Shown: positions 10,401-49,210, counted from the stretch's first letter. The stretch is DNA of 64,000 nt from an uncultured Bacteroidota bacterium (GCA_903916255.1 CAIWVW010000086.1:381-64380); one strand, 5' to 3'. Program-made: numbers and translations. The notes: generated from the sequence alone by a model not told the origin.

Positions 10401-13368
10401 CACCGGAAACAGTTACAGAAGCTGTTCCATTGCAATCGCCAAAGCAAGTGATATTGGTTTGCGTGGTTGTAAGAATCATCGGGGCTGGTTGAGTAACGGT
10501 AATATTGATAGAATCTTTACAGCCGTTTGCATCTGTAACAACCACTGAATAGGAACCTGCGCAAAGACTGCTTATAGTAGCATTAGTGCCTCCATTACTC
10601 CAGCTATAGGTGTATGGTGGTGCACCACCCGAAGGATTAGCGGTAGCAGAACCATTACAACTACCGTTACATGTAATGCCGGTTTGCGATGTGGCAACTG
10701 AAATAGAATTGGCAGGCTGGGTGATTGTCACATTAAGAGAATCTTTGCAACCATTTGCATCACTTACAACAATTTTATATACTCCTGCACACAGGCTTGA
10801 TGCAGTAGCATTTGTGCCTCCGCTTGGGCTCCAAGCATAAGTATAGGGAGAAGTTCCACCTGAAACGGTTACCGTAGAAGAGCCATTGCAGTCGCCTTTA
10901 CATTTAATATTTGTTTGAGTTAAACTGATAAGTATTGGGTTAGGTTGAGTAATGGTGACATTAGCGGAGTCTTTACAGCCTTTAGCGTCAGTAACTACGA
11001 TAGTATAGATTCCGGCACACAAGCCACTGACATTTGTTGTGGTGGCTCCATTGCTCCAATGATAAGTATAAGGGATATTTCCTCCCGATACGCTAATCGT
11101 TGCAGTTCCAATACAGTTTGCCATACATGTAACATTTGTATTGGTAGTGGTAAGAATCATTCCGGCCGGCTGTGTAATAGTAACATTGGTAGAATCCTTA
11201 CAACCGTTTGCATCCTTAACCACAATTTTATAGGTTCCGGCACATAATCCGGTTGCTGTTGCATTTGTTCCTCCGCCTGGGCTCCAGTTATACGTATATG
11301 GTGTAGAACCACCGGTTATAGTTGCAGTAGCAGTACCATTACATGTACCATTACAGGTCAAGTTTGTTTGGGCGGTAGTAATCGCAAGTGCAGTTGGTTG
11401 AGTGATAGTGACATTGGCTGAATCTTTACATCCATGTGAATCGCTTACCGTAATCTTATAGGAGCCTGCGCACAAGCTGCTGATAGAGGTATTGGTTCCT
11501 CCATTGCTCCAGCTATAGGTATAAGCAGGTGTTCCGCCGGAAACAGTAACGCTGGCAGTTCCGTTGCAATTTCCATTACAACTTACATTGGTCTGGGCAA
11601 CCGAAACGGTAAGTGTTGATGGTTGTGTAATTGTAACATTAGCGGAGTCTTTACATCCATGTAAATCTGTGACTACAATTTTGTAAACCCCTGCGCAAAG
11701 GCCTGACGCTGTTGCATTGGTTCCACCGCTTGGGCTCCATTGATAAGTATATGCAGGTGTACCGCCTGTAACAGTTGCAGTTGCGCTGCCATTGCAGTTT
11801 CCATGACAGGTAACATTGCTTTGCGTTGTAGTTAAAGTTATGGGTGTTGGCTGTGTAATTGTAACAGTGTTTGTTCCCATACAACCCGAATCGTCTTTTG
11901 CTGTAAGTGTATAAGTTCCGGCACATAATCCGGTGATGGTTGCAGTGGTTTGTCCGCCCGGTGCCCATGTATATTTATATTGTCCGTGTCCGCCTGATGC
12001 AGTTGCAACAACTGAACCATTGCAAGAGCCGTTGCAGGTAACATTAGTTGGGGTAAAGGAAATAGTAACAGGGAGAGGCTGTGTAACAGTAGTTCTGAAA
12101 GTATTGCGGCAGCCGCGTGAATCGATAATACGAATAGAGTAGGTGCCTGCACATAATGAACTGTCGTAAAATGAATTGCTTGGATTGCCCACCGCAGAAC
12201 CTGTAGGTCCATTACTCCAAGCATAGGTATAGTTTGGTGTTTCACCTGAAATACGAGTAATAATCCAACCATCACAACTTCCATTACAAGTTACATTGCG
12301 TTTAACGTAGTTGGTAGTAAGCGGCGGCGGAGCAATAACATTTACAAATATCGGGCCATAAACGGTTTGGCTGGCAGAATCGTAAATGGTATAGGAGTAA
12401 GTATTCGGGCAAAGGTTAAATGCACTAAACCCGGTAACCGTATCTATTTGGTTTGGTCCGGCCCATGAAATGGAAAAAGGCCCTCCATCGGTAGCATTAA
12501 CTTGCGTTATTACAATAGAGCCATTACAATTTAACCCGGTATCGGCTGCATTACAGGTGGGTGGAGTTATGATTGAGTCTACAGAAGTAACTTCAGGTGT
12601 AAAACGTGGAGTTAAAGGATTTGCTGTAAAACGATTCTGAATATTAGTAAAGTTGTTTACCGGGAGTGAATGTTGGAAATATATTTTGGCGCCGTTAGTA
12701 TTCGAATGGAAGTTTCCGGCTCCCATATTATCGTATACTTGTTTGATGGCCACTACTGAGTGGTTAATGTCCAGCAGTTTTTGAGCAGAGCCTGAAATCT
12801 TTAAAGTTCCGCATTGAATTGCATTGCTATTGGCAATTAAGGAACCTTCACTCAATGTTAATGTTGACGAAGGAGAAAGAATCAAAGCACCTGTAAGTTG
12901 CCAGGAACCGCTTCCCTCAAATGATACATTCCCAGCCAATGTATTTCCAAAAGTGTTTATTGTATTACCATTCAAAGAAGATTTAAAATGAATCTCACCC
13001 TTGTAATTCCAGGTTATTTGAGGAGTAACAAATAGAGAACCAGATATATTTAGTGTTGAAGAACTGCTTCCTGAAACAATCGATTTGGGAATAGTTGAAC
13101 TCCATACAATATTGCGGCATTCCATATTACCTGAAAGCACAATATTCTCATTGAATGTGATGAATGAGTTTTCATCAAAAATTACGTCATCATTGGCATT
13201 AGGGAGATTTGCTCCGCCTCTTCCACCACTTGTCAGCGACCAGTGATTTGCATTATGCCAGTCCCCCGAACCACCTACCCAATATAAGTTAGTAGCATCT
13301 CCAGTAAAGGATAAAAATCCGAAGACGAGAGATAAGAAGGTTAACCTTAAGAAAGTATTTTTTTTCAT
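7447..13368 (-). CDS. Giant SprB-repeat cell-surface adhesin with T9SS type B (gliding-motility-associated) C-terminal sorting domain
   Basis: About 1973 aa from the MKKNTFLRLTFLSLVF signal-peptide start (the ORF-track start 14 codons upstream is rejected). About 20 tandem SprB repeats of 75-78 aa (NVTCNGxCNGxAxxxVSGGTxPYTYxWSxGxTxxxxxGLCAGxYxxxVTDxxGCKDSxxVTITQP). C-terminal FTPNGDGQNDVW...YNRWGELLF...GTYYYII matches the type B sorting domain, which partners with PorP/SprF. Confidence 0.9.
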   Translation of the reverse strand: MKKNTFLRLTFLSLVFGFLSFTGDATNLYWVGGSGDWHNANHWSLTSGGRGGANLPNANDDVIFDENSFITFNENIVLSGNMECRNIVWSSTIPKSIVSGSSSSTLNISGSLFVTPQITWNYKGEIHFKSSLNGNTINTFGNTLAGNVSFEGSGSWQLTGALILSPSSTLTLSEGSLIANSNAIQCGTLKISGSAQKLLDINHSVVAIKQVYDNMGAGNFHSNTNGAKIYFQHSLPVNNFTNIQNRFTANPLTPRFTPEVTSVDSIITPPTCNAADTGLNCNGSIVITQVNATDGGPFSISWAGPNQIDTVTGFSAFNLCPNTYSYTIYDSASQTVYGPIFVNVIAPPPLTTNYVKRNVTCNGSCDGWIITRISGETPNYTYAWSNGPTGSAVGNPSNSFYDSSLCAGTYSIRIIDSRGCRNTFRTTVTQPLPVTISFTPTNVTCNGSCNGSVVATASGGHGQYKYTWAPGGQTTATITGLCAGTYTLTAKDDSGCMGTNTVTITQPTPITLTTTQSNVTCHGNCNGSATATVTGGTPAYTYQWSPSGGTNATASGLCAGVYKIVVTDLHGCKDSANVTITQPSTLTVSVAQTNVSCNGNCNGTASVTVSGGTPAYTYSWSNGGTNTSISSLCAGSYKITVSDSHGCKDSANVTITQPTALAITTAQTNLTCNGTCNGTATATITGGSTPYTYNWSPGGGTNATATGLCAGTYKIVVKDANGCKDSTNVTITQPAGMILTTTNTNVTCMANCIGTATISVSGGNIPYTYHWSNGATTTNVSGLCAGIYTIVVTDAKGCKDSANVTITQPNPILISLTQTNIKCKGDCNGSSTVTVSGGTSPYTYAWSPSGGTNATASSLCAGVYKIVVSDANGCKDSLNVTITQPANSISVATSQTGITCNGSCNGSATANPSGGAPPYTYSWSNGGTNATISSLCAGSYSVVVTDANGCKDSINITVTQPAPMILTTTQTNITCFGDCNGTASVTVSGGNAPYTYKWNTGATTTSIAGLCSGTTRIVVTDSHGCKDSVDVITTEPTALVATTSQTNVTCNGSCNGTATATVSGGTPAYTYSWSNGATTASVTGLCAGNYKFVVTDNHGCADTLMVTITQPNAIAITTTQTNISCNGNCNGTASATVSGGSPAYVYNWSNGATTATISSLCSGSYKLTVTDSHGCKDSVTVTITQPTALAITTTQTNESCNGNCNGTANATVTGGTPAYTYSWSNGATTTSINNLCAGNYEIVVTDANGCKDSVRINITQPNALSISTSQINVSCNGDCNGQATASIGGGTAPYTYLWTPSGGTNATATGLCPGSYTITVTDNNNCSVTASVTITQPTTSLSASITSSVNVTCTGNCNGVATVTASGGTAPYNYLWTPSGGTNATATGLCAGAYTVTVTDNNGCTTTASINITQPLTVLSATLTSSTNVTCNGSCNGSATVSASGGTAPYTYSWSPGGGTNATEANLCANTYTVTVTDNNGCTASVMVTITQPTAITITTTQTNATCNGSCNGTATATATGGTAPYTYTWSNSATGQSVTGLCAGLYTLSVTDNSGCSQTTTVNITAPAPLAVSISANTIQCHNSCDGIAIVSVTGGTSPYTYTVSSHSSTNMYYNDTIKNLCPGITYTIVVEDSNRCTIIDSVNFTNPPGMAVSNTVTSSTCNSSNNGAISVSVSSGNAPYTYSWSNGSTNQNQSNILSGTYTLTVTDATGCTTADTVIVTSMQTVIAIGGSDTSICAHNPVTLNGDSSINALTFQWFQMPGLNPISDTTTVTVTPSVTTSYILVVSNGGCTDTATTVVTINPAISVDAGTTQSIIPNQSVTLGGNPTAPSGSTYFWEPSSSLNDSTGSNPVATPTITTTYTVFANNPGGCPGSDTVTVFVVPQIIIPDGFTPNGDGQNDVWNIGYVYNFPAVVVEVYNRWGELLFRSVGYSTPWDGTYNGKPVPVGTYYYIINLHDPRYTQNYTGPVTILR
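8460..12270 (-). repeat. Array of about 20 tandem coding repeats of about 225-235 bp (SprB repeats) inside the adhesin gene
   Basis: Recurrent DNA strings such as ccattgctccagctataggtata, ggttccaccgcttgg and gtaacagttgc occur roughly every 230 bp. Many antisense and off-frame ORFs in the track (for example 8758..9012 and 11838..12284) are artefacts of this repetition. Confidence 0.8.
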
Positions 13369-13525
13369 CAGTAAATTATGGGTGTAAACATGAATTATTA
13401 CGATTACCAAGGGCTTATGTTACAGAATGGTGATTTGCATGTTAATAAATGAAGGCCATCAACTCATTGAAGACCTTATTGTTTGCCAGACTATTGTGGT
13501 ATGTTAATAATTCACCTAAAGAGAC

Positions 13526-14125: not shown

Positions 14126-14563
14126 TTGTCGTTTATGACAGTAGAGAATAATGATTTAAAACGCCCTATTCGTGTGTTAGTAGCCAAAGTTGGCTTGGAT
14201 GGACATGATAGGGGGGCTAAAGTGATAGCATCATTCCTTCGCAATGCAGGTATGGAAGTTATTTACACCGGATTGCATCAAACCCCTGAAAGTGTTGTAA
14301 ATACAGCTTTACAGGAAGATGTGGATGTAATCGGGCTAAGTATATTATCAGGTGCGCATAACACGGCCTTTCCGAAAGTGATGAAACTAATGAAGGAAAA
14401 GCAACTGGATGATGTATTGCTTACAGGCGGCGGTATTATACCGGATAAAGACATGGAAGAACTCAATAAGTTGGGGGTTGGAAGGCTTTTCCCGCCAGGA
14501 ACAGACACGCATATAATTGTAGAATATATCCAGAATTGGGTAAAAGAACACAGGAAATTCTAA
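14126..14563 (+). CDS. Cobalamin (B12)-binding domain protein, methylmalonyl-CoA mutase C-terminal-domain-like
   Basis: [34 protein letters not shown] carries the DxHxxG B12-binding motif. 145 aa and Rossmann-like. Start lies 3 nt after the purN stop. Confidence 0.8.
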
Positions 14564-16874: not shown

Positions 16875-17309
16875 ATGAAAGTGAAAATTGTAAATAAATC
16901 AAAACACCCCTTGCCACAGTATGCAACAGTGGCATCTGCCGGTTTTGATGTGCGCGCCAATATAAATACAACAATGGTTTTGAAATCAATGGAACGGGCG
17001 TTGGTGCCCACAGGTTTATTTATGGAGCTCTCAGTTGGATATGAGGCGCAAGTTCGTCCAAGAAGCGGACTTGCCTTTAAGCATGGTATTACCGTACTTA
17101 ATTCACCCGGTACTATTGATGCCGATTATAGGGGAGAGTTGAAAGTGCTGCTTATAAACCTTTCTAAAGAAGATTTTGCCATTAACGACGGAGAGCGCAT
17201 TGCACAAGTAGTAGTAGCAAAACATGAACAGGTAGAGTGGGAAGTAGTAGAACAACTGATGGAAACCGAAAGAGGCACAGGTGGGTTCGGGCATACAGGT
17301 AAGCATTAA
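16875..17309 (+). CDS. dut: dUTP diphosphatase
   Basis: [35 protein letters not shown] and GERIAQ are the dUTPase motifs 1-5. Confidence 0.9.
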
Positions 17310-17342
17310 TTATTATAAGTGATAAATTAAAAGATAGTATTT

Positions 17343-18338
17343 ATGAAACTGATTATTCCAATGGCAGGTATAGGTAAACGGATGAGGCCGCATACATTAA
17401 CAGTTCCAAAGCCTCTATTACCGGTAGCTGGCAAGCCGATGGTACAACATCTTGTAGAAGATATTGCTGCAACCATAAAAGGGCAAATTGATGAAATTGG
17501 TTTTGTAATAGGGCATTTTGGTAAAGAAGTAGAAAATCATTTATTAGCTGTCGCGAATAAATTGGACGCTAAAGGGAAAATATATTACCAGGAAGAAGCA
17601 TTGGGTACTGCACATGCTATTATGTGCGCTTCAGAACTGTTGGAAGGTAATGTTGTAGTGGCATTTGCCGATACTCTTTTCAGGGGAGAGTTTACGGTGG
17701 ATACTTCTCACGAAGGGATTATTTGGGTGCAAAAAGTGGAAGACCCTAAACCATTTGGAGTGGTAAAGCTCGACAAGCATAATATCATTACTGATTTTGT
17801 AGAAAAGCCACAAGAGTTTGTTTCCGACCTTGCAATAATTGGTATTTATTATTTTAAAGATGGCGCATACCTGAAAAAGGAAATGCAATATCTGCTTGAT
17901 AATGACATTAAGGAGAAAGGCGAGTACCAACTGACAAATGCACTGGAAAACATGAAGCAGAAAGGCACAAAATTCAGCGTGGCGCAAGTAACGGAATGGC
18001 TTGATTGTGGTAGTAAAGCTAATATGTTGCACACCAATAAGCGCCTGCTTGAAATAAAAAAATCACCCAAAAATGCTACCGTTAAAATAGTTAATTCCAC
18101 TATTATCGAACCTTGCTTTATTGGTGAGAATACTACTGTTATAAATTCGGTTGTAGGGCCTTTTGTTTCCATCGGCAGCCATAATCATATTGAAGGCTCA
18201 ATTATTTCCGATACTATTATCCAGGATAATTCAAATATTGCGAATGCTAATATTACAGAATCAATGGTTGGTAGCCATGTTCATTATGTAAGCAAGCAGG
18301 AACAGTTAAATTTGGGCGATTACAATCAGAAAAGCTAA
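17343..18338 (+). CDS. Sugar-phosphate nucleotidyltransferase with C-terminal left-handed beta-helix domain
   Basis: MKLIIPMAGIGKRMRP...KPLLPVAGKPM is a G-rich NTP-binding loop. The C-terminus has hexapeptide-like repeats (IIEPCFIGENTTVINSVVGPFVSIG). Confidence 0.7.
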   Translation: MKLIIPMAGIGKRMRPHTLTVPKPLLPVAGKPMVQHLVEDIAATIKGQIDEIGFVIGHFGKEVENHLLAVANKLDAKGKIYYQEEALGTAHAIMCASELLEGNVVVAFADTLFRGEFTVDTSHEGIIWVQKVEDPKPFGVVKLDKHNIITDFVEKPQEFVSDLAIIGIYYFKDGAYLKKEMQYLLDNDIKEKGEYQLTNALENMKQKGTKFSVAQVTEWLDCGSKANMLHTNKRLLEIKKSPKNATVKIVNSTIIEPCFIGENTTVINSVVGPFVSIGSHNHIEGSIISDTIIQDNSNIANANITESMVGSHVHYVSKQEQLNLGDYNQKS

Positions 18339-18343
18339 GTAAA

Positions 18344-20095
18344 ATGAAGCCGGCAATTAAAAAACAGTTTTGTTTCGGACTCATTTATTCGATGGTCTCG
18401 GTCCTGTTTTTTTCATGCTCAGGCCCAAAAAAATCAGTTTCAACAACATCGGTTAAGAAGCATAGTCAAATAGACGAAGATAAATTCAAGGCTTCATTCT
18501 ATGACGGTATAAAACAAAAAATATTGGGCAATTACGATGATGCGATGGGCCATTTTAGGCGCTGCCTTGTAATAAATCCCATAAGTCCGGCTGCTAATTT
18601 TGAGGTTTCGGAAATATTGTCATATAACAAACGCCCGGATAGTGCATTGGTTTATATGAACAAGGCTGTGAATGGTGACCCTGGAAATGTGTGGTATCGA
18701 TATTTTTATGCGCAAAACCTGCAAGAATTAGGCCGATATAAAGAGGTGATAAAAGTTTATCAGGATTTAATTAAAATGCATCCTGGAAATACAGATTTAT
18801 ATTATAAACTTGCCCTAGCCCAGTTACAGTCGGAGCAATATAAGGAAGCCATTGAAACCTATAATTCGCTTGAGCAAAAACTGGGTTCTCCCGATGAAGA
18901 TATTTCGATGAGTAAAATTGAAATATTTGAAAAAATAAAAGATTATGCCAAGGCAGAAGAAGAGATTCAAAAACTGATTAAGCATGACCCCTCAACCCCT
19001 CAGTATTATGATATGCTCGGAAATCTTTATGAGTTGGAAGGCAAGCCCGATAAGGCTTTTGAGCAATATCAGAAAATGGAGGAATTACACCCGCATGATG
19101 CAATGGTGCATTTATCGCTTGCCAATTATTATAAAACAAAAAACCAAGACCAAAAAGCTTTTGAGGAGTTAGAAAAGGCTTTTGATGAGCCTGCCCTTGA
19201 TATTGATACTAAAATCAGGATAATACTGGGGCTATCAACTTTTACCAACAGCGATTCAATATTCAGCCAGGCAACCACATTAGCAAGAAAGATGGTGGTT
19301 GCTAACCCCACCGAACCTCAGGCACACGCTGTTTATGGCGAACTTCTTTTACGGAACAAAGATTTAGCCGGAGCGAGAGACCAATATCGTATTGCAGTTA
19401 GGGAAGACAGTAATAAATACGCTTACTGGAGCGGATTATTGGAACTGGAAGGACAGTTGAATGATATGAAAAGCCTGGAAAGCGAGAGCCATGAAGCAAT
19501 AGGTTTATTCCCGAATAACGCACAGTTCTATTACTATAATGGTTTTGCCAACATGCAATTAAAAAATTTCGATAATGCACTCTATGCGTTTAAGACGGGA
19601 CTATTTTATGTGCTGAATGATTCTGCTATGCTTGGGATGTATTACACAAATATTGGCGATGCCAGTTATTATACCAAAAGGTTTTCTGCATCCGATTCAG
19701 CCTATGAAGAAGCTCTTAAAATAAACCCGAATAATGACAATGTATTGAATAACTACAGTTATTATTTGTCTGTGCGCGATACTAATTTGACGTTGGCTGA
19801 AAAAATGTCGAAGAAAGCAAATGAATTAGTTCCCGGAAACGATTCTTATGAAGACACCTACGGATGGATACTGTATATGTCGGGCAAATACCAAGATGCA
19901 AAGGAATGGGAATATAAAGCAATTACACATGGAGGCGACAGGAATGCCACTGTTTTAGAACATTACGGGGACATATTATTTAAATTGGGCAATAAGGATT
20001 CTGCTGTGGAATATTGGATTAAGGCAAAAGACAGAGGCCCCTCTTCCGATTTACTGGAAAGAAAGATAAAAGATAAGAATTTATATCAAAAATAA
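18344..20095 (+). CDS. Tetratricopeptide-repeat lipoprotein
   Basis: Lipoprotein-type signal (LFFSCSG) followed by multiple 34-aa TPR-like units (W/LG/Y/A/F/A/P pattern) along 583 aa. Confidence 0.75.
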   Translation: MKPAIKKQFCFGLIYSMVSVLFFSCSGPKKSVSTTSVKKHSQIDEDKFKASFYDGIKQKILGNYDDAMGHFRRCLVINPISPAANFEVSEILSYNKRPDSALVYMNKAVNGDPGNVWYRYFYAQNLQELGRYKEVIKVYQDLIKMHPGNTDLYYKLALAQLQSEQYKEAIETYNSLEQKLGSPDEDISMSKIEIFEKIKDYAKAEEEIQKLIKHDPSTPQYYDMLGNLYELEGKPDKAFEQYQKMEELHPHDAMVHLSLANYYKTKNQDQKAFEELEKAFDEPALDIDTKIRIILGLSTFTNSDSIFSQATTLARKMVVANPTEPQAHAVYGELLLRNKDLAGARDQYRIAVREDSNKYAYWSGLLELEGQLNDMKSLESESHEAIGLFPNNAQFYYYNGFANMQLKNFDNALYAFKTGLFYVLNDSAMLGMYYTNIGDASYYTKRFSASDSAYEEALKINPNNDNVLNNYSYYLSVRDTNLTLAEKMSKKANELVPGNDSYEDTYGWILYMSGKYQDAKEWEYKAITHGGDRNATVLEHYGDILFKLGNKDSAVEYWIKAKDRGPSSDLLERKIKDKNLYQK

Positions 20096-30099: not shown

Positions 30100-30232
30100 G
30101 TCATTGCGAGGCTTTGCGAAGCAATCTCTTTAATAAGAAGATTGCCAAACAGAGTTGGGTGAGATTGTTTACCTGCTTCTATTAATTTCTCAAGGAGTTC
30201 ACGAGCCCTTCGGGGTTGCTTCGCAATGACGA
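30100..30232. repeat. MITE/REP-like palindromic element (family GTCATTGCGAGG..CGAAGCAATC) with terminal inverted repeats
   Basis: Left end gtcattgcgaggctttgcgaagcaatctc. Right end ggttgcttcgcaatgacga, the reverse complement of tcgtcattgcgaagcaacc. The span is about 133 bp and non-coding. Related copies at 40912, 41181 and 43539. Confidence 0.7.
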
Positions 30233-38569: not shown

Positions 38570-39433
38570 TTAGCTGTATAATTCTTTTAGTGTATGTGTT
38601 TTTTCCAATGAAACTCTTCCGTCCGTTTTTTTTAATGTAGCGCACTCTGCACCCGGGTCATGTTCAAAAAATAAGACGGTATTTGTATCTGCAAATTCAT
38701 TCAGGAGCCTTTCTTTTTCTTTCAGCGTTTCCAAAGGGCGCACATCATAAGCCATTACATAGGGTAGGGGAATATGCCAGCGGGCGGGTAATAAATCAGC
38801 GCAAAAAACCACGGGGCGTTTTTTATACATAATTTTCGGAAGCATCATCGCTTCTGTATGTCCGTGCACATAGATGGCAGAAAAAGGCAATTGTGTTTCT
38901 CCATTTCCTTTTATCATTTGCAGTTGGCCGCTTTCTTGTATGGGCAAAATATTTTCTTTCAGGAAACTCGCTTTTTCACGGGCATTGGGTTTTATGGCCC
39001 ATTCCCAATGGAGTGGATTACTCCAATAAGTAGCGTTTTTAAAAGCAGGTTCGTATTTGGTCCTGTCAGTATTCCATTTAATGCTGCCCCCGCAATGGTC
39101 GAAATGTAGGTGGGTGAGGAACACATCGGTAATATCGTCGGTGGTAAATCCATTTGCAGCTAAAGACTTTTCAAGCGTATCATCGCCATGCAGATAATAA
39201 TAACCAAAAAATTTGGCATCTTGTTTAGTGCCCATGCCGTTATCTATAAGGATAAGGCGCTTGCCATCCTGCACCAATAGGCAACGCATGGCCCAACTGC
39301 ACATGTTGTTTTCATCGGCAGGATTGAGCTTGTTCCACATCGATTTTGGCACCACGCCAAACATAGCTCCGCCGTCCAGTTTAAAATTACCTGTATGTAT
39401 GGTATATAGTTCCATAATTTTTTTGTGTCCCAA
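38570..39433 (-). CDS. MBL-fold metallo-hydrolase
   Basis: THLHFDHCGG is the HxHxDH motif. Downstream His/Asp ligands (HGHTEAM, CADL). Confidence 0.8.
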   Translation of the reverse strand: MGHKKIMELYTIHTGNFKLDGGAMFGVVPKSMWNKLNPADENNMCSWAMRCLLVQDGKRLILIDNGMGTKQDAKFFGYYYLHGDDTLEKSLAANGFTTDDITDVFLTHLHFDHCGGSIKWNTDRTKYEPAFKNATYWSNPLHWEWAIKPNAREKASFLKENILPIQESGQLQMIKGNGETQLPFSAIYVHGHTEAMMLPKIMYKKRPVVFCADLLPARWHIPLPYVMAYDVRPLETLKEKERLLNEFADTNTVLFFEHDPGAECATLKKTDGRVSLEKTHTLKELYS

Positions 39434-39545: not shown

Positions 39546-40901
39546 ATGAAAGTACATCTGATAGCCGTTGGCGGAAGCGCCATGCACAACCTAGCCATTG
39601 CCTTGCATAAAAAAGGAATAACAGTTACCGGTTCCGACGATGAAATAGTAGACCCTGCCAAAAGTAATTTGCAACGCTATGGCTTATTGCCTTCGGCCGA
39701 GGGCTGGGATGTGAACCGCATTACAAAGGATTTGGATGCTGTTATTTTAGGTATGCATGCAAGGCTCGATAACCCTGAATTGATAAGGGCGCAGGAGTTA
39801 GGCATACGTATTTATTCTTACCCTGAATATCTATATGAGCAGACAAAAAATAAAACGCGTGTGGTGATTGCGGGTAGCCATGGGAAAACCACTATTACCG
39901 CTATGATTCTGCATGTGCTGAAGTACCACAATAAGAATTTCGACTATTTAGCCGGCGCTGCACTGGAAGGTTTTGAAACCAGTTTGAAACTTTCGGAAGA
40001 TGCGCCGGTGGCTATATTTGAGGGAGATGAATATCTTGCGTCCGCATTAGACAGGAGGCCAAAATTTCTTTTATATAAGCCCGACATTGCTTTAATATCA
40101 GGTGTTGCGTGGGATCATATAAATGTGTTCCCAACATATAGAAGCTATGTGGAGCAGTTTGAAAATTTTGTGAAAGAGATACCTGTTAATGGCTCATTAA
40201 TCTACTGTAATGAAGATGAGGAAGTGCGCAAGCTTACCTCACTGGCCAAAGGCGGTGTAAACTTACTTCCCTATAACACGCTTACCAATGTGGTGAAAGA
40301 TGGAGTAACTTATTTGCATGGAGATGCAGGAGATACAAGACTTGAAGTCTTCGGGAAACATAACCTGCTCAACATGGGTGGGGCTTGGGAAGTATGCCTG
40401 TTGTTGGGAATTACGCAGAAAGAATTCGCAGAAGCTATATCTTCTTTTAAAGGCGCAGCAAGGCGTTTGCAGTTGGTGGCGAGAAATGAAACCACCAATA
40501 TTTATTGGGATTTTGCGCACTCCCCATCTAAACTTACAGCTACAATACAAGCGGTAAAGGAGCAATTTCCTAAAAGGAAATTAGTCGCCTGCATGGAGTT
40601 GCACACCTTTAGCAGCCTTACGAAAGAGTTTTTGAAAGAGTACAAAGGCACAATGGATAACGCTGATGTGCGCAAAGTATATTTTAACCCGCATGTGCTG
40701 GAGCATAAGCGATTGGCGGCTCTCAGTGCTGATGAAGTGAAGAATTATTTTGGTTCAGTTGAAGTTTATACCGATTCAGCAAAAATGATTGACTCTCTAA
40801 AGCAACTTGATTGGAAAGATACCAACCTGCTTATGATGAGCTCCGGTAATTTCGACGGGGTGAATGTAAAAGGTTTTGCGGAGGGGCTGATTCACCATTA
40901 A
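39546..40901 (+). CDS. mpl: Mur ligase family protein (UDP-N-acetylmuramate:tripeptide ligase Mpl / MurC-like)
   Basis: N-terminus MKVHLIAVGGSAMHNLAIAL...GxxVTGSD is the MurC/Mpl N-terminal fold. P-loop GSHGKTTIT. Mur ligase middle and C-terminal domains. Confidence 0.75.
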   Translation: MKVHLIAVGGSAMHNLAIALHKKGITVTGSDDEIVDPAKSNLQRYGLLPSAEGWDVNRITKDLDAVILGMHARLDNPELIRAQELGIRIYSYPEYLYEQTKNKTRVVIAGSHGKTTITAMILHVLKYHNKNFDYLAGAALEGFETSLKLSEDAPVAIFEGDEYLASALDRRPKFLLYKPDIALISGVAWDHINVFPTYRSYVEQFENFVKEIPVNGSLIYCNEDEEVRKLTSLAKGGVNLLPYNTLTNVVKDGVTYLHGDAGDTRLEVFGKHNLLNMGGAWEVCLLLGITQKEFAEAISSFKGAARRLQLVARNETTNIYWDFAHSPSKLTATIQAVKEQFPKRKLVACMELHTFSSLTKEFLKEYKGTMDNADVRKVYFNPHVLEHKRLAALSADEVKNYFGSVEVYTDSAKMIDSLKQLDWKDTNLLMMSSGNFDGVNVKGFAEGLIHH

Positions 40902-40911
40902 GTACAGCCAA

Positions 40912-40942
40912 TCGTCATTGTGAGGCTTTGCGAAGCAATCTT
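40912..40942. repeat. Single-arm copy of the GTCATTGCGAGG..CGAAGCAATC element
   Basis: tcgtcattgtgaggctttgcgaagcaatctt sits immediately after the mpl stop. One mismatch (gtg versus gcg) to copies A and C. Confidence 0.65.
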
Positions 40943-41180
40943 ACTAATCCGCTTATTTATTCGGGACTAGTGCGATGTAAAATACGAATAATACAAACAC
41001 TATTACAAACGCTCGCAGCAGCCATTCCCTGAAATCTATTTCTTCTTTAACTTTCATACTCTTTATTATTAAAGTATAGCATGAAATCCAAAAACAAAAG
41101 TATTTCGGCAAAATGAACTCCAAATGAAGCCACAGCCGGTCGGCATTAGAAAGTGTTAAAGGCCCTTGCCAGACATGCAA

Positions 41181-41253
41181 ATAGTGTTGTTCGTCATTGC
41201 GAGGCTTTGCGAAGCAATCTCATTAGCAATAGTAGTAGAGATTGCTTCGTTTC
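41181..41253. repeat. Compact palindromic dimer of the GTCATTGCGAGG..CGAAGCAATC element
   Basis: tcgtcattgcgaggctttgcgaagcaatctc, then a 17-nt centre, then gagattgcttcgtttctcgcaatgag. The arms are near-perfect inverted copies giving an RNA or DNA hairpin of about 72 bp. Confidence 0.7.
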
Positions 41254-41463
41254 TCGCAATGAGGGTCCGAGCCGGACTGGCAATCAGGTCAGCAGTTGCT
41301 CGAAAAAAGCACCGATTTGTTTTTCTTTATCCACAAAGTGGAGCTCTAAAATCCAGTGGCGTACCCCCGCTCTTGAATAGCATTGAACAATTGCTCTGCA
41401 ATTTTTTCGGCTTGGATGAGGTTGGTTTTGGTAGTGGAGGTTGGCATGGGGTGAGTGAAATAA

Positions 41464-42369
41464 TTATCTTAATAATTTTACATTTAATAATTTTTCGTCA
41501 TTAAATACTGGTATTTCCTTACTACCATTTGTTTTATAAAAGCCATCGCCACCCTCAAAATAGTAATAACCATTTGAATAACAGAACCAATTCTCACCAA
41601 TTTGAGGTTCCATAAATACTTTTTTCCTTGTTTTACTTTTCAATGAATATTGAAATATAGGGTGCCTACCTTTAAAATAGCCATTTAAATACAAAAAGGA
41701 ACTATCATCAACCCAGTATAATACATGTTTTAAGCCATCTACGCCCATTTGGTATACAGAATTTGCGCTATCAATTTTTTCTATTTTTCCATTTTTAAAA
41801 TCCATTAGCATCAAGTAGGTAATACCATAGGTAGTTTCGGTCAAATCTTTTGTATAGAAAAAAATTGCAAATTTTTCATTTGGCGATATGCATAAATTTG
41901 AAACATTAATATAGTTTGGCAACTTGATAGTATCAATTTTATCATTTAAAAAATTTAATTTGATAAACTTATCATTACCATCATACCTATGGTCACCAAT
42001 AGCTTCTGTCGTATCAGTATTGTATATGATGTAAGCATTATTATGTTGAATTGTAAATTCTAATATATTATTTAAAGAGGAAAGTTTTTTAGAAATCGTA
42101 TAATCTTTATTGACTTGGTAAATATTAATTCCATTCGTAAAATAAATAATTCCATTTTTAGACACATCCCATTCTGTGATGAAATTTATCATTTCAGTTT
42201 TCAAAAATGAAGTGGAGAATGCTATCCGTTTAACTAATTTATTATTATTAATTATCTTAAAAATCGCACTATCCTTTGCTCCATAATCTTGAATTAAGAA
42301 ATCTTGAGCAAGTAAACAATTCGGTAAAAAAAGAAAAATTAGCAGATTAAACTTCATACTCAAAGGCAA
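41464..42369 (-). CDS. AT-rich secreted hypothetical protein (accessory island cargo)
   Basis: Signal peptide MKFNLLIFLFLPNCLLAQ. 301 aa with no recognisable motif. Coding GC is visibly lower than the flanking housekeeping genes. Confidence 0.5.
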   Translation of the reverse strand: MPLSMKFNLLIFLFLPNCLLAQDFLIQDYGAKDSAIFKIINNNKLVKRIAFSTSFLKTEMINFITEWDVSKNGIIYFTNGINIYQVNKDYTISKKLSSLNNILEFTIQHNNAYIIYNTDTTEAIGDHRYDGNDKFIKLNFLNDKIDTIKLPNYINVSNLCISPNEKFAIFFYTKDLTETTYGITYLMLMDFKNGKIEKIDSANSVYQMGVDGLKHVLYWVDDSSFLYLNGYFKGRHPIFQYSLKSKTRKKVFMEPQIGENWFCYSNGYYYFEGGDGFYKTNGSKEIPVFNDEKLLNVKLLR

Positions 42370-42514
42370 ATATAAAACTCTAAATTACTAAATATCCTAT
42401 TATTGGTTATCTTGACTTTAGTGGGTGCAAGATTTAAATTAAACTTCAATTTCCTTAACCGCAAAGGTGCGCAAAGAAAGGTGAAGGAGAACAAGGGGCT
42501 AAAGCCCCAAAATT

Positions 42515-42562
42515 GGCGGGTTTATTTATACCCCACCATAAATGGCGGGGCTAATGAATGAA
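42515..42562. repeat. Direct repeat 1 flanking the toxin-antitoxin cassette
   Basis: ggcgggtttatttataccccaccataaatggcggggctaatgaatgaa. Near-identical to the copy at 43071..43116 (ggggtttatttataccccaccataaatggcgggactaatgaatgaa). Confidence 0.75.
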
Positions 42563-42602
42563 AATTACCTATCTTTGCATGAGGAATAACTATAAAGCAT
42601 CT

Positions 42603-42794
42603 ATGACCTACATTTCAATAGATACGAATAAAAAAGAGGCGTTGCTTTTTTTAGAGTACGTTAAAACATTGTCTTTTGTAACTATTTATCAAAAGCCAAA
42701 CCGTGTAACACGGGCAGCCCTAGGTGAATCAAAAAAGGGGAAGACCAAAAAGCATAAAAGTTCTAAAGAACTTATTTCATCTTTAAATAAGTAG
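42603..42794 (+). CDS. Putative antitoxin partner of the YafQ-like toxin (small basic-tailed protein)
   Basis: 63 aa from the internal ATG (MTYISIDTNKKEALLFLEYVKTLSFVTIYQ...). The longer ORF-track start at 42558 runs into the flanking repeat. Stop is 3 nt before the toxin start, a typical toxin-antitoxin arrangement. No recognisable antitoxin motif. Confidence 0.4.
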   Translation: MTYISIDTNKKEALLFLEYVKTLSFVTIYQKPNRVTRAALGESKKGKTKKHKSSKELISSLNK

Positions 42795-42797
42795 GCC

Positions 42798-43070
42798 TTG
42801 TTTACATTACGCACTACCAATCAATTTCGAAAGGATTATAAGGTATGCCGTAAAAGGGGTTTAAATCTGGAGTTAATCAACGAAACATTTGAACTTTTAG
42901 AAAAAACAGGCGAGGTACCTGCTGAATATAATCCTCATAAATTACGCGGTAATTATTCAGGTTATTGGGAGTGCCATCTCTTGCCCGATTGGTTATTGAT
43001 ATGGTACTGCAACAAAAATAAAAAGGAAATTCATTTAGTAAGGACCGGCACACACAGCGACTTATTTTAA
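42798..43070 (+). CDS. Type II toxin, YafQ/RelE family mRNA interferase
   Basis: FRKDYKVCRKRGLNL...L..L...G.VPAEYNPHKLRGNYSGYWECHLLPDWLLIWY....KEIHLVRTGTHSDLF aligns along its whole length with E. coli YafQ (F.KD.K...KR...HxLxG...GxRxCHxxPDWxLIY...RTGTHxxLF). Confidence 0.85.
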   Translation: MFTLRTTNQFRKDYKVCRKRGLNLELINETFELLEKTGEVPAEYNPHKLRGNYSGYWECHLLPDWLLIWYCNKNKKEIHLVRTGTHSDLF

Positions 43071-43116
43071 TTAGGGGTTTATTTATACCCCACCATAAAT
43101 GGCGGGACTAATGAAT
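43071..43116. repeat. Direct repeat 2 flanking the toxin-antitoxin cassette
   Basis: Begins at the first nucleotide after the toxin stop codon. 44 of 46 positions are identical to repeat 1. Followed by four consecutive perfect stem-loops (ctaatgaatgaa/ttcattcattag, ccacggc/gccgtgg, gggct/agccc, aagccc/gggctt). Confidence 0.75.
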
Positions 43117-43254
43117 GAACGGCGGGATACCTTCATTCATTAGCCACGGCTTTTAAGCCGTGGTTGGGTTAATACAATACAATTGGTAGGGCTTTAGCCC
43201 TTAAATAAAAGCTAAGCCCCACCCACAAAGGTTCGCAAAGCCCGAAGGGCTTCA

Positions 43255-43411
43255 ATGTGAGTAGCCACAGGAGAATCCGGTGGTAAATAGTGCAGGATTA
43301 ATTGCAACCCTGAAAGGGTTGAATAAACAGCAATGTGTTTTTCTGTTCAACCCTTTCAGGGTTGCAAATCATTGTTTGGTTTATACCACCGATTACATCG
43401 GTGGCTACTCA
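43255..43411. repeat. 155-bp nested palindromic element (MITE-like / long hairpin)
   Basis: Outer inverted repeat tgagtagccac / gtggctactca. Inner perfect 22-bp inverted repeat ttgcaaccctgaaagggttgaa / ttcaaccctttcagggttgcaa. Each inner arm is itself a 7-bp hairpin (caaccct..agggttg). No ORF. Confidence 0.7.
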
Positions 43412-43485
43412 TATTTAAGTCCTCCGGACTTCGGTCTGTATTTAAACGGCCACCCACCCTGCCCATCCGGGGGATGGGGAATCTG

Positions 43486-43530
43486 TAAAAACAAAAAACC
43501 CTTCCATTTCTGAAAGGGTTTTATTTTATT
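43486..43530. terminator. Rho-independent terminator downstream of pnp (minus strand), usable bidirectionally
   Basis: aacccttccatttctgaaagggtt stem-loop with A-tract on the plus strand and T-tract on the minus strand (aaaacaaaaaa upstream, ttttattttattt downstream). Confidence 0.65.
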
Positions 43531-43538
43531 TATTGGGT

Positions 43539-43565
43539 AAGATTGCTTCGTTCCTCGCAATGACG
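43539..43565. repeat. Inverted single-arm copy of the GTCATTGCGAGG..CGAAGCAATC element
   Basis: aagattgcttcgttcctcgcaatgacga, the reverse complement of tcgtcattgcgaggaacgaagcaatctt. Lies between the pnp stop and its terminator. Confidence 0.65.
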
Positions 43566-43611
43566 AACTAACGTTTGCCAGTCGGGCTCCGACTGCTCGT
43601 CCGGCTCGGAC

Positions 43612-45834
43612 CTATCTGCGATGTCCGCCGCCACGTCTGTCGCCGCCGCGTCTGTCACCTCCGCCGGAGCGGAAACCGCCACCGTTGCTTTCTTCTTCGG
43701 TAGGTTCAGGCATGCCTTCAGGGCGTGGTAAAAGCACTTTACGTGATAATCTGTATTTGCCCGTTTTTTGGTCAACTGCCAACAGTTTCACACGTACAGT
43801 GTCACCTTCGTTAAAGATGCCTTGCATACTGTCGAGGCGTTTCCAGTCTACTTCCGAAATGTGGAGCAGACCTTCTTTTCCCGGCAGGAATTCAACAAAT
43901 GCGCCGAATTCAACAATGCTCTTTACTTTTCCTTCGTATTCGGTTCCGGGTTCAGGTATAGTAGTAATTCCTTTAATGCGGGCCAAAGCAGCGTCGATAG
44001 CTTCTTTGTTCGGTGAGGAAATATCTACATAACCCATTCCGTCTTTTTCTTCAATTACAATAACAGCACCGGTGTCGGCTTGTATGCCTTGAATAACCTT
44101 TCCACCCGGACCTATAACTGCACCGATCATATCCTTAGGAATCTTGATTTGGATAATACGAGGAGCATAAGGTTTGTAATCGGCATTCGGGCCGGCAAGT
44201 GTTTTAGCCATTTCGCCTAATATGTGGAGACGTCCGTTGCGGGCTTGTTCCAATGCCTGTGCAAGCACTTCGTAGGAGAGTCCGTCAATTTTAATATCCA
44301 TTTGGCAGGCGGTGATACCGTCTTTTGTTCCGGTAACTTTAAAGTCCATATCGCCAAGGTGGTCTTCATCGCCGAGGATATCAGAAAGGATAGCGAATTT
44401 ACCGCTCTTAGGGTCAGCAATCAATCCCATAGCAATACCTGCAACGGGTTTGGTAATTTGCAGACCTGCATCCATCAATGCTAAGCATCCTGCGCAAACA
44501 GTCGCCATAGATGATGAACCATTCGATTCTAATATATCAGATACGATACGAACAGTATATGGATTTTCAACTGGCATAACGGCTCTTAAGGCACGTAATG
44601 CAAGGTTACCGTGGCCTATTTCGCGGCGGCCTGTGCCACGCATCATCTTCGCTTCGCCGGTTGAGAACGGAGGGAAGTTATAGTGCAGCATAAAGTTATT
44701 TGTTCCGTCAATCACGGCTCCGTCAATTAACTGGGCATCTAATTTGCTACCCAAAGTTACTGTTGTAAGTGATTGTGTTTCGCCACGGGTGAAGATAGCT
44801 GAACCATGCGCCATTGGCAGGTAAGCTACTTCGCTCCATATCGGGCGGATTTCATCGCCTTTGCGGCCATCCAAACGCACTTTTTCATTCAGCATGCAAT
44901 CGCGAACGGCTTCTTTTTCTATTTCAAAAAAGTAACGTTTCATCATGCCTGCTTTTTCTTCTTTTTCTTCGTCGGTAAGGGTTGCTTTAAATTCATCGCG
45001 AACGGCTTCAAACCTTTCATTGCGGACATGCTTGTTGGCCAACCCTTCAGTAGCGATGGTATAAAACTTTTCGTAGCAATGCTTGCGCATATTTTCTTTC
45101 AAATGCTCATCGTTGGTTTCGTGGGAGTATTCGCGTTTTTCAGTCGCGCCTACCAACTTAGCCAATTCTAATTGGGCCTTGCATTGGTCCTTGATTACAT
45201 CGTGGGCCAGTTTCAATGCTTCCACCATTTCGGCTTCGCTGCATTCTTTCATCGAACCTTCCACCATGTTCAAATCGTTCATGGTTCCGGCAACAATAAT
45301 ATCTAAGGTGGCATTTGCGTTTTCTTCAAAGGTAGGGTTAACTACAAATTTGCCATCAATTTTAGATACACGAACTTCCGATATGGGCCCGTTAAACGGG
45401 ATATTGGAAACAGCAATAGCGGCAGAAGCTGCTAATCCGGCTAACGAGTCAGGCATAACCTTGCCGTCGGCAGAGATTAAGTAAACCAATACTTGGATTT
45501 CTGCGTGGTAATCATCCGGGAACAATGGGCGTAATGACCTGTCAATGAGACGGGAAATTAAGATTTCATATTCCGAAGGACGGGCTTCGCGCTTGAAGAA
45601 TCCGCCGGGGATACGTCCCGAAGATGCAAATTTTTCTTGGTAATCAACGGATAAAGGAAGGTAATCCATACCTTCTTTAGCGTCTTTGTTTGATACTACG
45701 GTAGCGAGTAACATGGTGTCGCCCATGCGAACCACTACGCTTCCGTCTGCTTGTTTGGCCAGCTTACCTGTTTCTATGGTAATAGACCTGTCGCCTTCAC
45801 CCGGAAGAGCGATTTTAATGTTTTTTATATTCAT
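43612..45834 (-). CDS. pnp: Polyribonucleotide nucleotidyltransferase (PNPase) with Arg/Gly-rich C-terminal tail
   Basis: Two RNase PH domains (GRREIGHG and further conserved motifs), KH domain ([10 protein letters not shown]), S1 domain ([15 protein letters not shown]). Then [23 protein letters not shown] at the extreme C-terminus. Confidence 0.95.
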
Positions 45835-45847
45835 GTGTAATGAGTTA

Positions 45848-45945
45848 AAAGTTTGTAAAGTAGAAAGTTTGTAAAGTGGGTAAAGCCGATAAGTTCATAA
45901 AGTGTATTACTTTATAAACTTTCAACTTTATGAACTTTATAAACT
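45848..45945 (-). promoter_or_regulatory. rpsO-pnp intergenic A/U-rich hairpin array (rpsO terminator / pnp leader processing structure)
   Basis: Forward units agtttgtaaagt (two copies) and aagttcataaagt, followed by reverse-complement units actttataaact, actttatgaactt and actttataaact. Position is analogous to the E. coli rpsO terminator t1 / RNase III site region. Confidence 0.5.
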
Positions 45946-46213
45946 AACGACGGATATCCAGCTTCTTGATGAGTGCTCTGTAACGAGCAATATCTTTGGC
46001 CTTTAAGTATTCTAACAGAGCTTTACGTTTTCCTACCAAATTTACCAACGACCTCTTGGTTCCCAAGTCTTTTGGGTTGTCTTTAAGGTGTTGTGTAAGG
46101 AAATTGATGCGGACGGTAAAGAGGGCAATCTGGCTTTCTGATGTGCCAGTTGCGGTTTCAGCGCCTCCGTGTTCACGGAATATCTGCTTTTTGGCTTCTT
46201 TTGTTAAGTACAT
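45944..46213 (-). CDS. rpsO: 30S ribosomal protein S15
   Basis: Full-length 89-aa match to S15 (MYLTKEAK..., GSxEVQIALLTxRIxxLTxHLKxHKKDHHSRRGLLxLVGxRRxLLxYL pattern). Confidence 0.95.
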   Translation of the reverse strand: MYLTKEAKKQIFREHGGAETATGTSESQIALFTVRINFLTQHLKDNPKDLGTKRSLVNLVGKRKALLEYLKAKDIARYRALIKKLDIRR

Positions 46214-48576: not shown

Positions 48577-48633
48577 CCCATAACTACTGACAATTTTATC
48601 GGCACTCGGAAAATGATTGTTACGAAATAAAAA

Positions 48634-49024
48634 AGCAGGTCTGTAAGCCGGATTCTGTCTACCCCTCATGACTGAGGCTGATTCTATCATTTATCTCATC
48701 ACACCGAAATGTGATAGGGCATTGCATTGCTGCGTTGCGCCTGCAACCTACCCACCAAGTCGGGCGAGCCACCCTAAAGCCCTGGCTTATTTGGTCTTGC
48801 AACTCCCGGGGTTTATCCCTACTGCAAGTTGCCCTGCAATATCGTGAGCTCTTACCTCGCGTTTTCACCCTTACTCCGCATTGCTGCGGGGCGGTTATTT
48901 CCTGTGACACTGTCCGTCACCAAACATTTACTGCCTGATGCCCCCTGTATTCCAGGGGTGGGATGCTCCTTGTTGTCCGGACTTTCCTCTCCGCATTGCT
49001 GCGAAGCGATAGAACGACCTGCTG
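48634..49024 (-). ncRNA. rnpB: RNase P RNA, bacterial type A
   Basis: Minus-strand reading gives the universally conserved elements AGGAAAGTCCGGAC (P4 5' strand), AAGGGTGAAA, GTAAGAGC.CAC, GGGTAGGTTGC and ACAGAATCCGGCTTACAGACC (P4 3' strand). P1 is formed by AGCAGGTC at the 5' end and GACCTGCT at the 3' end, followed by a T-tract. Length about 390 nt. Confidence 0.85.
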
Positions 49025-49210
49025 GGCGCAAAATTACTAATAAAAAAACAAAGCCAGTGCGATTATAATTCTGACGAAGGAAGTATCTCTTCTATAAAGA
49101 GATACTTCGCTCTGTTCAGGATGACAAAGCCATGTTAATAATAGAGTGGGGGAGGGGGGTAAGTATTAGTGCAAACCCATATATTTGCAGCTTTTAGAAA
49201 ACGAGCACTA

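Follow-up and report, generated by a model that had tools for sequence, protein, structure and literature searches.

Several described kinds of chromosomal variability come close to the locus reported here. Variable regions that lie between conserved flanks and are swapped by homologous recombination have been termed minimal mobile elements, as far as they are summarised in PMC3787668, and palindromes are hotspots of double-strand breakage which are processed by SbcCD (PMC4245961). The superfamily of CGTC-tagged repetitive extragenic palindromes (REPs), which is characterised by stems of 8-9 bp, loops of 4-5 nt and an unpaired CGTC ahead of a stem that starts with AT, has been reported in Bacteroidetes and is without a dedicated transposase (PMC3733652). 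For Proteobacteria and Neisseria there is good documentation of hotspots with a turnover of accessory and defence genes between fixed core genes; for uncultured freshwater Bacteroidota there is hardly any. We have analysed a 64,000-nt stretch of DNA from an uncultured Bacteroidota bacterium (GCA_903916255.1, CAIWVW010000086.1:381-64380; the window in the following), in which a variable stretch of 2.7 kb (positions 40,902 to 43,611) separates the convergent genes for a Mur ligase (+ strand) and for polynucleotide phosphorylase, pnp (- strand). This interval is a real, species-variable insertion hotspot of a freshwater Bacteroidia lineage and not an integron, and a toxin-antitoxin (TA) module of the YafQ type is found in it within a palindromic element that we call E. 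The five features listed in a preliminary description of the interval all exist at or near the places given for them and above chance expectation. That description, however, had treated as a single repeat picture what are three unrelated repeat families, named P1, E and N below.

The Mur ligase gene is kept in all of the relatives compared, which are referred to by locus numbers. In L022, whose Mur ligase is 75% identical on the amino acid level, no more than ~450 bp with one small DUF3806 gene lie between it and pnp, which is followed by rpsO, and this compact interval indicates that the adjacency of the Mur ligase gene and pnp is ancestral and was once compact. L006 (96% amino acid identity; flanks 81-89% identical on the nucleotide level) carries an intact M24 peptidase gene, an antitoxin gene with a truncated Doc-like open reading frame (ORF), an ORF of 374 amino acids (aa) and an aquaporin gene; L007 (91%) carries an M24 peptidase gene and an AbiV-type gene, after which the contig ends; and L013 and the contig L010 carry an M24 peptidase gene, an HNH gene, ORFs of 220 aa and 74 aa, a TA pair and a 54-aa ORF. 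In L008, L009 and L021 (86-87%) the synteny with pnp is broken. The segments which the relatives share are 81-93% identical on the nucleotide level, yet the cargo differs: between the same flanking genes the contents of the window, L006, L007 and L013 are all different from one another, and L022 is compact. Judged from these sequences, the interval is built of three independently variable sub-slots with the conserved 5' end of the M24 gene and E between them, which in the window hold a low-GC orphan gene for a predicted beta-propeller protein, the YafQ-type TA module and N. The proposal that the interval is a dynamic insertion hotspot is thus borne out by relatives with different cargo and by a precise empty site for the TA unit, and what would have spoken for a static locus, identical content in the relatives along with repeats unique to this place, was looked for and is not what they show.

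L006 contains a further module of this general kind. Its positions 11409-11839 comprise a 62-aa antitoxin-like ORF with a weak match to DUF2281 and then a 30-aa N-terminal ORF fragment (MITVKEAIRIQKILIEEFGGA…), which by eye reads as a truncated Doc toxin and is cut by a duplicated 5' end of the M24 gene. This small antitoxin/Doc-like module is bracketed by a direct repeat of ~70-85 bp and is a second such module in the slot.

The history of the sub-slot that holds the TA module can be read at the level of single base pairs. The TA pair is bracketed by direct repeats, as had been noticed, but these are 45 bp and not 46 bp in length (BLAST E value 4e-17; Table 1). After removal of positions 42563-43119 (557 bp) the window is colinear with L006 13114-13371 at 91% identity, the left half of E corresponding to L006 13114-13279 and the right half to 13280-13371. 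L006, from which the TA module is absent by alignment, is an empty site with a single intact E and one copy of the 45-bp sequence, and given this colinearity the TA module plus the second left arm is an insertion of 557 bp relative to the empty site. The unit interrupts the central hairpin of E, a perfect one of 12 bp, precisely where the left arm gives way to the loop.

In the order of its parts, E consists of a header, a variable hairpin, the hairpin GGGGCTAAAGCCCC, the left arm GGGTTTATTTATACCCCACCATAAATGGCGGGGCTAATGAATGAA, a 12-nt loop, the right arm TTCATTCATTAG running into the hairpin CCACGGCTTTCAAGCCGTGG, and the hairpin AGGGCTTTAGCCCT; its core measures ~160 nt and the element with its header ~240 nt. 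Four full copies share a consensus fold in which a 14-bp helix closes off three hairpins; two of its pairs are compensatory in L012, the most divergent copy, and its G·U pairs weakly favour the + strand for any transcript. Folded as DNA, the element reaches z = -6.9. Across seven copies from four genomes a 42-nt core of the left arm shows no change, and the 12-nt loop varies. A covariance model of E scores 130 bits on the right half in the window; neither the 64 kb of the window nor ~240 kb from other loci yields a further copy. A search with a 23-mer of the left arm matched one JGI metagenome contig (L010, arranged as L013) and three metagenome-assembled genomes (MAGs) among 185,579 species representatives, with a single locus in each genome, and no viral contig; the 45-bp sequence was therefore rejected as a dispersed genome-wide repeat. 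L013 has three copies of E, all in the Mur ligase-pnp interval, L012 has one full copy at an unrelated place, flanked by the 3' ends of a parC-like gene and of rplI, and L011 has just one of the hairpins. E is thus low in copy number and locus-restricted, unlike REPs, and in the course of evolution it has evidently come to occupy more than one place in the chromosome. RNase P is the only Rfam family above the gathering threshold in the window, and an E-value search of positions 40880-43640 returned only miRNA and rnk-leader noise; as there is no credible match, the repeats are not a described RNA family, and E is a previously undescribed element without Rfam counterpart.

The TA module itself is readily recognised. 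Its toxin matches Pfam PF15738 (E value 3e-30, 104.6 bits against a cutoff of 30) and TIGR02385 (65.2 bits against 27.9) and scores 64.8 with the stricter YafQ model TIGR00053, below the cutoff of 87.25; by these profile matches it is a toxin of the YafQ/RelE family and part of a type II TA system. The antitoxin-like ORF of 63 aa ends 3 nt ahead of the toxin gene and matches no Pfam or NCBIfam family. The consensus of the Bacteroidetes-type -7 box is TAnnTTTG, and a box inferred on this pattern precedes the ORF (Table 1). A matching pair of 63-aa and 90- or 91-aa genes occurs in L013, in L014-L019 and in L020; the pair in L013 is 93% identical on the nucleotide level, and the L020 toxin, which is 97% identical, lies in a third context. 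In L013 the toxin gene (L010 2879-3151, equal to L013 416-688, - strand) has a premature stop at codon 11, between NQF and KDYK, and the antitoxin ORF is intact; this reading frame suggests a module in decay. The closest TA homologues elsewhere (72-83% amino acid identity) are bare two-gene inserts in three contexts, namely between plsX and fabH, between an aldehyde dehydrogenase gene and the gene of a protein with a type IX secretion system (T9SS) tail, and between mnmE and porP. They are without E and without long flanking repeats, from which it follows that the 45-bp repeat belongs to E and not to the TA module; a general mobility feature of this TA family, for which it could have been taken, it is not. 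The closest homologue with a long contig (83% amino acid identity; L014 674-2115, L015 465-2537) is inserted between plsX and fabH, and plsX beside it is called as fragments, of 103 aa in L014 and of 151 and 182 aa in L015. The insertion at this place may accompany disruption of a core lipid-synthesis operon.

Table 1. Features of the Mur ligase-pnp interval and its anchors, in window coordinates
Feature	Position	Strand	Description
Mur-ligase family gene (Mpl/MurC-like)	39546..40901	+	left conserved anchor; Pfam Mur_ligase, Mur_ligase_M, Mur_ligase_C
P1, lone left arm (TCGTCATTGTGAGGCTTTGCGAAGCAATCTTACTA)	40912..40946	+	REP-like with CGTC tag; just past the Mur ligase stop codon
Conserved 34-aa ORF (MKVKEEIDFREWLLRAFVIVFVLFVFYIALVPNK)	40953..41057	-	hydrophobic by inspection; called at equal position in L001, L006 and L007
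P1, complete inverted dimer	41189..41264		left arm 41191-41225, right arm 41239-41262
M24 peptidase remnant	41287..41447	-	residues 1-28 joined to ~203-226, ~174 codons deleted
Low-GC orphan ORF	41464..42357	-	297 aa, cargo of slot A; GC 0.23-0.31 against ~0.42 in the flanks
E, left half	42429..42562	+	CGCAAAG-type header, hairpin GGGGCTAAAGCCCC, 45-bp left arm 42518-42562 (direct-repeat copy 1)
TA module	42563..43074	+	inferred Bacteroidetes-type -7 box TATCTTTG 42570-42577, antitoxin-like ORF 42603-42794, toxin 42798-43070 (90 aa)
E, second copy of the 45-bp left arm	43075..43119	+	direct-repeat copy 2, 44/45 identical to copy 1
E, right half	43120..43215	+	12-nt loop, right arm TTCATTCATTAG, hairpin CCACGGCTTTTAAGCCGTGG, closing hairpin AGGGCTTTAGCCCT
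Nested palindrome N (~194 bp)	43238..43431		arms 43238-43323 and 43346-43431, 86 nt each, with sub-hairpins of their own
Intrinsic terminator of pnp	43495..43522	-	12-bp stem followed by a T-run; conserved in L006 and L013
P1, lone right arm	43537..43566	-	immediately downstream of the pnp stop codon
pnp (polynucleotide phosphorylase)	43612..45834	-	right conserved anchor; Pfam RNase_PH, PNPase, KH, S1
rpsO	45944-46213	-	adjoins pnp

But how would a fixed slot between two housekeeping genes gain and lose accessory genes? We consider it reasonably probable that it does so through breakage and recombination at its palindromic repeats and without a dedicated integrase. The variability of the slot, its empty site, the positions of the breakpoints, the structure and low copy number of E and the dispersal of P1 are observations; the molecular mechanism and the direction of events we infer as follows. 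The palindromic elements would form hairpins or cruciforms, stall replication and be cut at the loop, and the breaks would be repaired by illegitimate joining or by homologous recombination, with another copy of a repeat or an incoming DNA of matching conserved flanks as the partner, so that cargo would be gained, swapped, truncated or lost in the course of repair. Recombination between the two 45-bp arms would release the TA unit as a circle and leave an intact E behind, as it is seen in L006, and the reverse reaction would reinsert it. Exchange of the whole slot by homologous recombination in the conserved flanks, after the fashion of the minimal mobile elements of Neisseria, is plausible as well. 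Addiction is the probable reason why the TA module persists, and the module may lend stability to the slot.

We favour breakage and recombination because breakpoints recur at the arm/loop boundary of the perfect 12-bp hairpin and because the locus and its relatives carry the kinds of damage that illegitimate joining, hairpin processing and slippage leave behind: the deleted M24 gene of the window, the duplicated M24 5' end and the truncated Doc-like ORF of L006, the stop codon in the L013 toxin gene, and a 28-bp internal tandem duplication in the right arm of the second E copy of the L013/L010 array (L010 2526-2585; …GCCACGGCTTTTAAG/AGTTCATTCATTTGCCACGGCTTTCAAG…), which is consistent with slippage at hairpins. 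Several considerations weigh against this explanation. The mechanism is read from the end-states of four or five genomes, which fit insertion as well as deletion. The junction that follows the left arm (CTAATGAATGAA/) was seen twice independently at one nucleotide of E, in the upstream copy of the window and in the third E copy of L013, and the 42-nt left arm is near-invariant though the flanks differ by 10-20%; both would be expected equally well of a sequence-specific protein. Finally, the 220-aa ORF, the 74-aa ORF and the TA pair of L013 and L010 are kept apart by three tandem, co-oriented copies of E, and the junctions fall at distances of 0-5 nt from a stop codon, an arrangement more organised than random breakage predicts.

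The observations on the other two repeat families bear on an alternative reading, in which E and N are non-autonomous elements mobilised in trans, akin to miniature inverted-repeat transposable elements (MITEs) or to the REP doublets known as REPINs, with the TA module as a passenger inside E and the 45-bp repeat as a by-product of the duplication or transposition of E. P1 (GTCATTGCGAGG…CGAAGCAATC) occurs three times in the interval, as the preliminary description had it, although as one full dimer and two half copies instead of three full ones. The dimer has a homologue in L006 at 10641-10722, and the right arm at the pnp stop codon is found in L006 at equal position (14435-14467). Another dimer is found 11 kb away from the island, at 30100-30232 in an intergenic region unrelated to it; its arms are ~80 nt apart, and it has a homologue in L007 at 1000-1093. 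P1 thus occupies two intergenic loci in 64 kb, both with dimers. Allowing at most one mismatch, GTCATTGCGAGG has five matches in the window against 0.21 expected, a 24-fold excess over shuffled sequence, and CGAAGCAATC has six against 0.08, a 75-fold excess. Spacer variants of P1 with an 8-nt spacer (2 or 5 nt in the window copies) are present in 13 IMG/VR viral contigs, and these matches show only that spacer-variant relatives of P1 are widespread. Every copy carries the CGTC tag, as TCGTC-ATTGC…, while the 5-bp stem and the loop of at least 10 nt lie outside the geometry of CGTC-tagged REPs (PMC3733652). On these sequence characters P1 is a REP-like dispersed repeat that we do not file as a member of the REPs.

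N lies in the region of the chain of stem-loops that had been noticed. Perfect hairpins with a stem of 7 bp or more number 11 in the kilobase from position 43000, as compared to 1-4 in each of the other kilobases of the window, and the folding of this region exceeds that of shuffled sequence with z = -10.9 for 43071-43535 on the + strand and z = -13.6 for 43071-43611 on the - strand. The nested palindrome in it is present as described but extends over ~194 bp and not 155 bp; its arms are 76% complementary and its inner 22 nt perfectly so. N fills slot C, where L006 has the aquaporin gene, and no second copy was found in the fetched loci or in viral contigs. The covariance model of E scores a weak 28 bits on N, an architectural resemblance, and the 8-bp direct repeat CCACCCAC that flanks N is, as a target-site duplication, too short to tell from chance.

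Mobilisation in trans would account for the inverted termini of E (the 14-bp h1/h6 helix, extended to TAT(T/G)TAAGGGC in L012) and of N, for the presence of E at an unrelated locus in another MAG, for the REPIN-like inverted dimers of P1 and their dispersal, and for the occupation by N, with its E-like architecture, of a site that holds other DNA in L006; REPs are, moreover, known insertion targets for mobile DNA (PMC3733652). We nevertheless regard it as unlikely, since E is confined to one locus per genome in three genomes, N is without a second copy in anything searched, neither has a convincing target-site duplication, no transposase or REP-associated tyrosine transposase (RAYT) gene was seen near the locus in the gene tables, and P1 departs from REP geometry in the way described.

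The organisation of the E copies in L013 raises the question of site-specific capture. E would then be the site of an unrecognised recombinase encoded elsewhere, analogous to attC, and the TA module with one 45-bp arm a mobile cassette, which would excise as a circle (junction GAATGAA/AATTACC) and integrate at the arm/loop boundary of E, so that L013 would be a genuine array. TA cassettes are typical of chromosomal integrons, and the clean empty site of L006, the two junctions at one nucleotide of E, the invariance of the 42-nt arm next to a varying loop, the three E copies of the same orientation between small cassettes in L013 and the confinement of E to one locus per genome, as seen for the attC arrays of integrons, are all in support of this notion. 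The junctions as a whole are not. One of them, immediately before the left arm, is common to the window and L013, and others lie before the header (L020), inside the header (the second E copy of L013/L010), at the closing helix (the first copy) and after the tail, so that cassettes meet E at no fewer than five different positions. None of the junctions read (GAATGAA/AATTACC, TTAATTAG/GGGTTT, TTTTTTAA/ACTTAAA, GCCCT/TTA) is at a GTTRRRY/RYYYAAC-type site; the only GTT(G/A)GGT in E is internal and no junction, and boxes resembling the R'' and R' boxes of attC (CCTTAAC…GTTAGGT), which are likewise at no junction, were treated as chance. Such ragged junctions fit illegitimate rather than site-specific joining. 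In addition, the ORFs of L013 and L010 lie on both strands with -7 boxes of their own, so that their orientation relative to E is mixed, the loop differs between copies, which is awkward for the overlap region of a tyrosine recombinase, and the closest TA homologues do without E. Two or three contexts only are available, and each end of a unit is set by a single junction. No integrase-family Pfam match was found among the genes called within ±10 kb, in agreement with the earlier remark that no integrase is in view. Taken together, we think that site-specific capture is quite unlikely. The comparison with an integron made in the preliminary description holds as loose logic, in that three E copies separate cassettes in one relative, and is unsupported as mechanism, with ragged junctions, none of them at GTTRRRY, and no integrase. 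A bolder form of the idea, to which we likewise give little credence, is that E, as a cloverleaf-like DNA or RNA of ~160 nt, is the site at which an unrecognised cassette system of Bacteroidota acts, always on the same position and by means of a trans-acting enzyme other than an integron integrase. If so, this system would insert and excise small self-promoted cassettes, such as TA pairs, orphan antitoxin-like genes and defence genes, and build arrays of the L013 type.

That the interval is an ancient fixed sequence, or a mis-assembly or chimera, without ongoing dynamics is highly improbable: the recovered contigs of the source species (Mur ligase 100% identical) do share one gene order, with the variation lying between species-level relatives, but relatives with 81-93% nucleotide identity in shared segments differ in cargo and include an empty site, a gene remnant and pseudogenes occur, and the gene order is identical on several independent ENA and Logan assemblies, with the orphan ORF on five contigs, so that the arrangement is not an artefact of assembly.

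Returning to breakage and recombination in a variable slot, the remaining features of the interval can be placed as follows. The window is part of a 141-kb contig from a freshwater-lake MAG that is annotated as Bacteroidia/Bacteroidota, and the lake metagenomes behind the contigs include the runs ERR4195023, ERR4194057 and ERR4195074. A classical genomic island the interval is not, as no integrase-family match within ±10 kb and no tRNA or tmRNA gene that could serve as integration target (the whole window was scanned) was found and its ends carry inverted P1 arms and not direct repeats. Three independent assemblies stop at 40931-40940, within the first P1 arm, and two further ones begin or end within the low-GC ORF, which fits repeats or population heterogeneity but is only suggestive. 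A scan with a sigma-70 promoter model, which is unsuited to Bacteroidota, gave 8 sites against 9.2 expected. The left anchor scores under the cutoffs of both the murC and the mpl model of NCBIfam.

The M24 peptidase gene, which is intact in L006, L007 and L013, survives in the window as a remnant that was found by tblastn with the intact 226-aa protein of L013. As the interval holds this remnant and the conserved 34-aa ORF in addition, the earlier statement that it contains no housekeeping function needs correction. The region of the 34-aa ORF aligns with L006, so the ORF lies outside the variable cargo; it may be a real small membrane protein. The AT-rich gene that had been reported as secreted is the low-GC ORF of slot A, the N-terminus of which (MKFNLLIFLFLPNCLLAQ) by eye resembles a signal peptide. 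It has no match in Pfam, NCBIfam or PADLOC, and its candidacy as a defence gene was dropped with the last of these. Among 5.8e9 proteins it found itself alone, and among 1.8e9 representatives 11 relatives at ~30% identity. A beta-propeller fold is predicted for it by AlphaFold2 (AF2), with a predicted local distance difference test score (pLDDT) of 83 from a 12-sequence alignment against 34 from the single sequence, and the model gives generic matches to beta-propellers of the TolB, YWTD and BtuG-like kind. Homology to the 301-aa and 374-aa ORFs of relatives at equal position was considered and rejected, as comparison showed them to be unrelated; L006 and L013 carry unrelated genes there, and the L008 protein is a MORN-repeat protein.

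Outside the interval, just downstream of rpsO, L006 has a gene for an AbiL-like, OLD/Gabija-type AAA ATPase (17229-18820; PADLOC AbiLi, E value 2.5e-20) with a 168-aa partner, and the source contig has a response-regulator gene in their place, so that a second variable slot appears to lie alongside. Upstream of the Mur ligase gene lies a gene of metallo-beta-lactamase fold (38570-39433, - strand), which is conserved in all relatives and has a weak match to Apyc1 (Anti-Pycsar, PF23023). The one Rfam family at gathering score in the window is a bacterial RNase P RNA of class A (48628-49025, - strand; 205 bits), and from ~49169 on the + strand a product of 919 aa is encoded that contains two consecutive sets of D-Ala-D-Ala ligase N- and C-terminal domains, apparently a tandem-fused double Ddl.

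What, then, does the locus add to the systems from which we set out? It is a compact example, resolved to the base pair, in which an empty site, a filled site with a 45-bp duplication, a decaying copy, gene remnants and three families of palindromic repeats as breakpoints are seen side by side. Should the junctions of E be site-specific, a new cassette-capture system would be at hand, and if not, the locus would be a clean natural case of palindrome-centred rearrangement.

With the minimal mobile elements of Neisseria (Saunders & Snyder 2002), as far as these are summarised in PMC3787668, the interval shares different genes per slot between conserved flanks, the lack of integrase, transposase and tRNA, and a cargo that is mostly hypothetical or of the TA or defence type; it differs from what is summarised there in that many of the rearrangements took place within the slot, at repeats, and did not replace the slot as a whole. 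The intergenic space of Neisseria is also crowded with small palindromic repeats, the CGTC-type REP dRS3 and Correia elements (PMC3733652), as is the interval here. In common with integron arrays and clusters of attC sites lacking integron integrases (CALINs) the locus has repeated, structured, imperfect palindromes between small packed cassettes that include TA pairs, one locus per genome and one empty site; it differs in that there is no IntI-type gene nearby, that E, with its four helices in a core of ~160 nt and its 42-nt arm of invariant sequence, is not an R''/L''-L'/R' attC and its closing helix and three hairpins are unlike the single bulged hairpin of attC, and that its junctions are ragged instead of G/TTRRRY, with mixed ORF orientations. 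P1 resembles the CGTC-tagged REPs (Di Nocera et al. 2013, PMC3733652) in having CGTC followed by AT, in forming inverted dimers, in its intergenic 3' location, in its occurrence at more than one locus and on many unrelated contigs, and in that partners are often split by inserted DNA into singletons. It differs from them in its stem of 5 bp (ATTGC/GCAAT only) and loop of 10-13 nt as compared to the published 8-9 bp and 4-5 nt. The TA module is like solitary chromosomal RelE/YafQ modules in its 90-aa toxin behind a small antitoxin ORF, in the 3-nt gap and in its own predicted promoter, and unlike them in that its antitoxin belongs to no Pfam or NCBIfam family and in that it is embedded in a palindromic element with a 45-bp duplication. 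Finally, breakpoints at an arm/loop boundary and the clustering of deletions, duplications and novel joints at inverted repeats recall the instability of palindromes processed by SbcCD (PMC4245961), with the difference that the arms are 12-86 nt long, imperfect and known from their sequence, while the palindromes studied there are perfect and 246-460 bp long. A chromosomal variable slot structured by palindromic repeats is a known kind of locus, and E is its one undescribed component.

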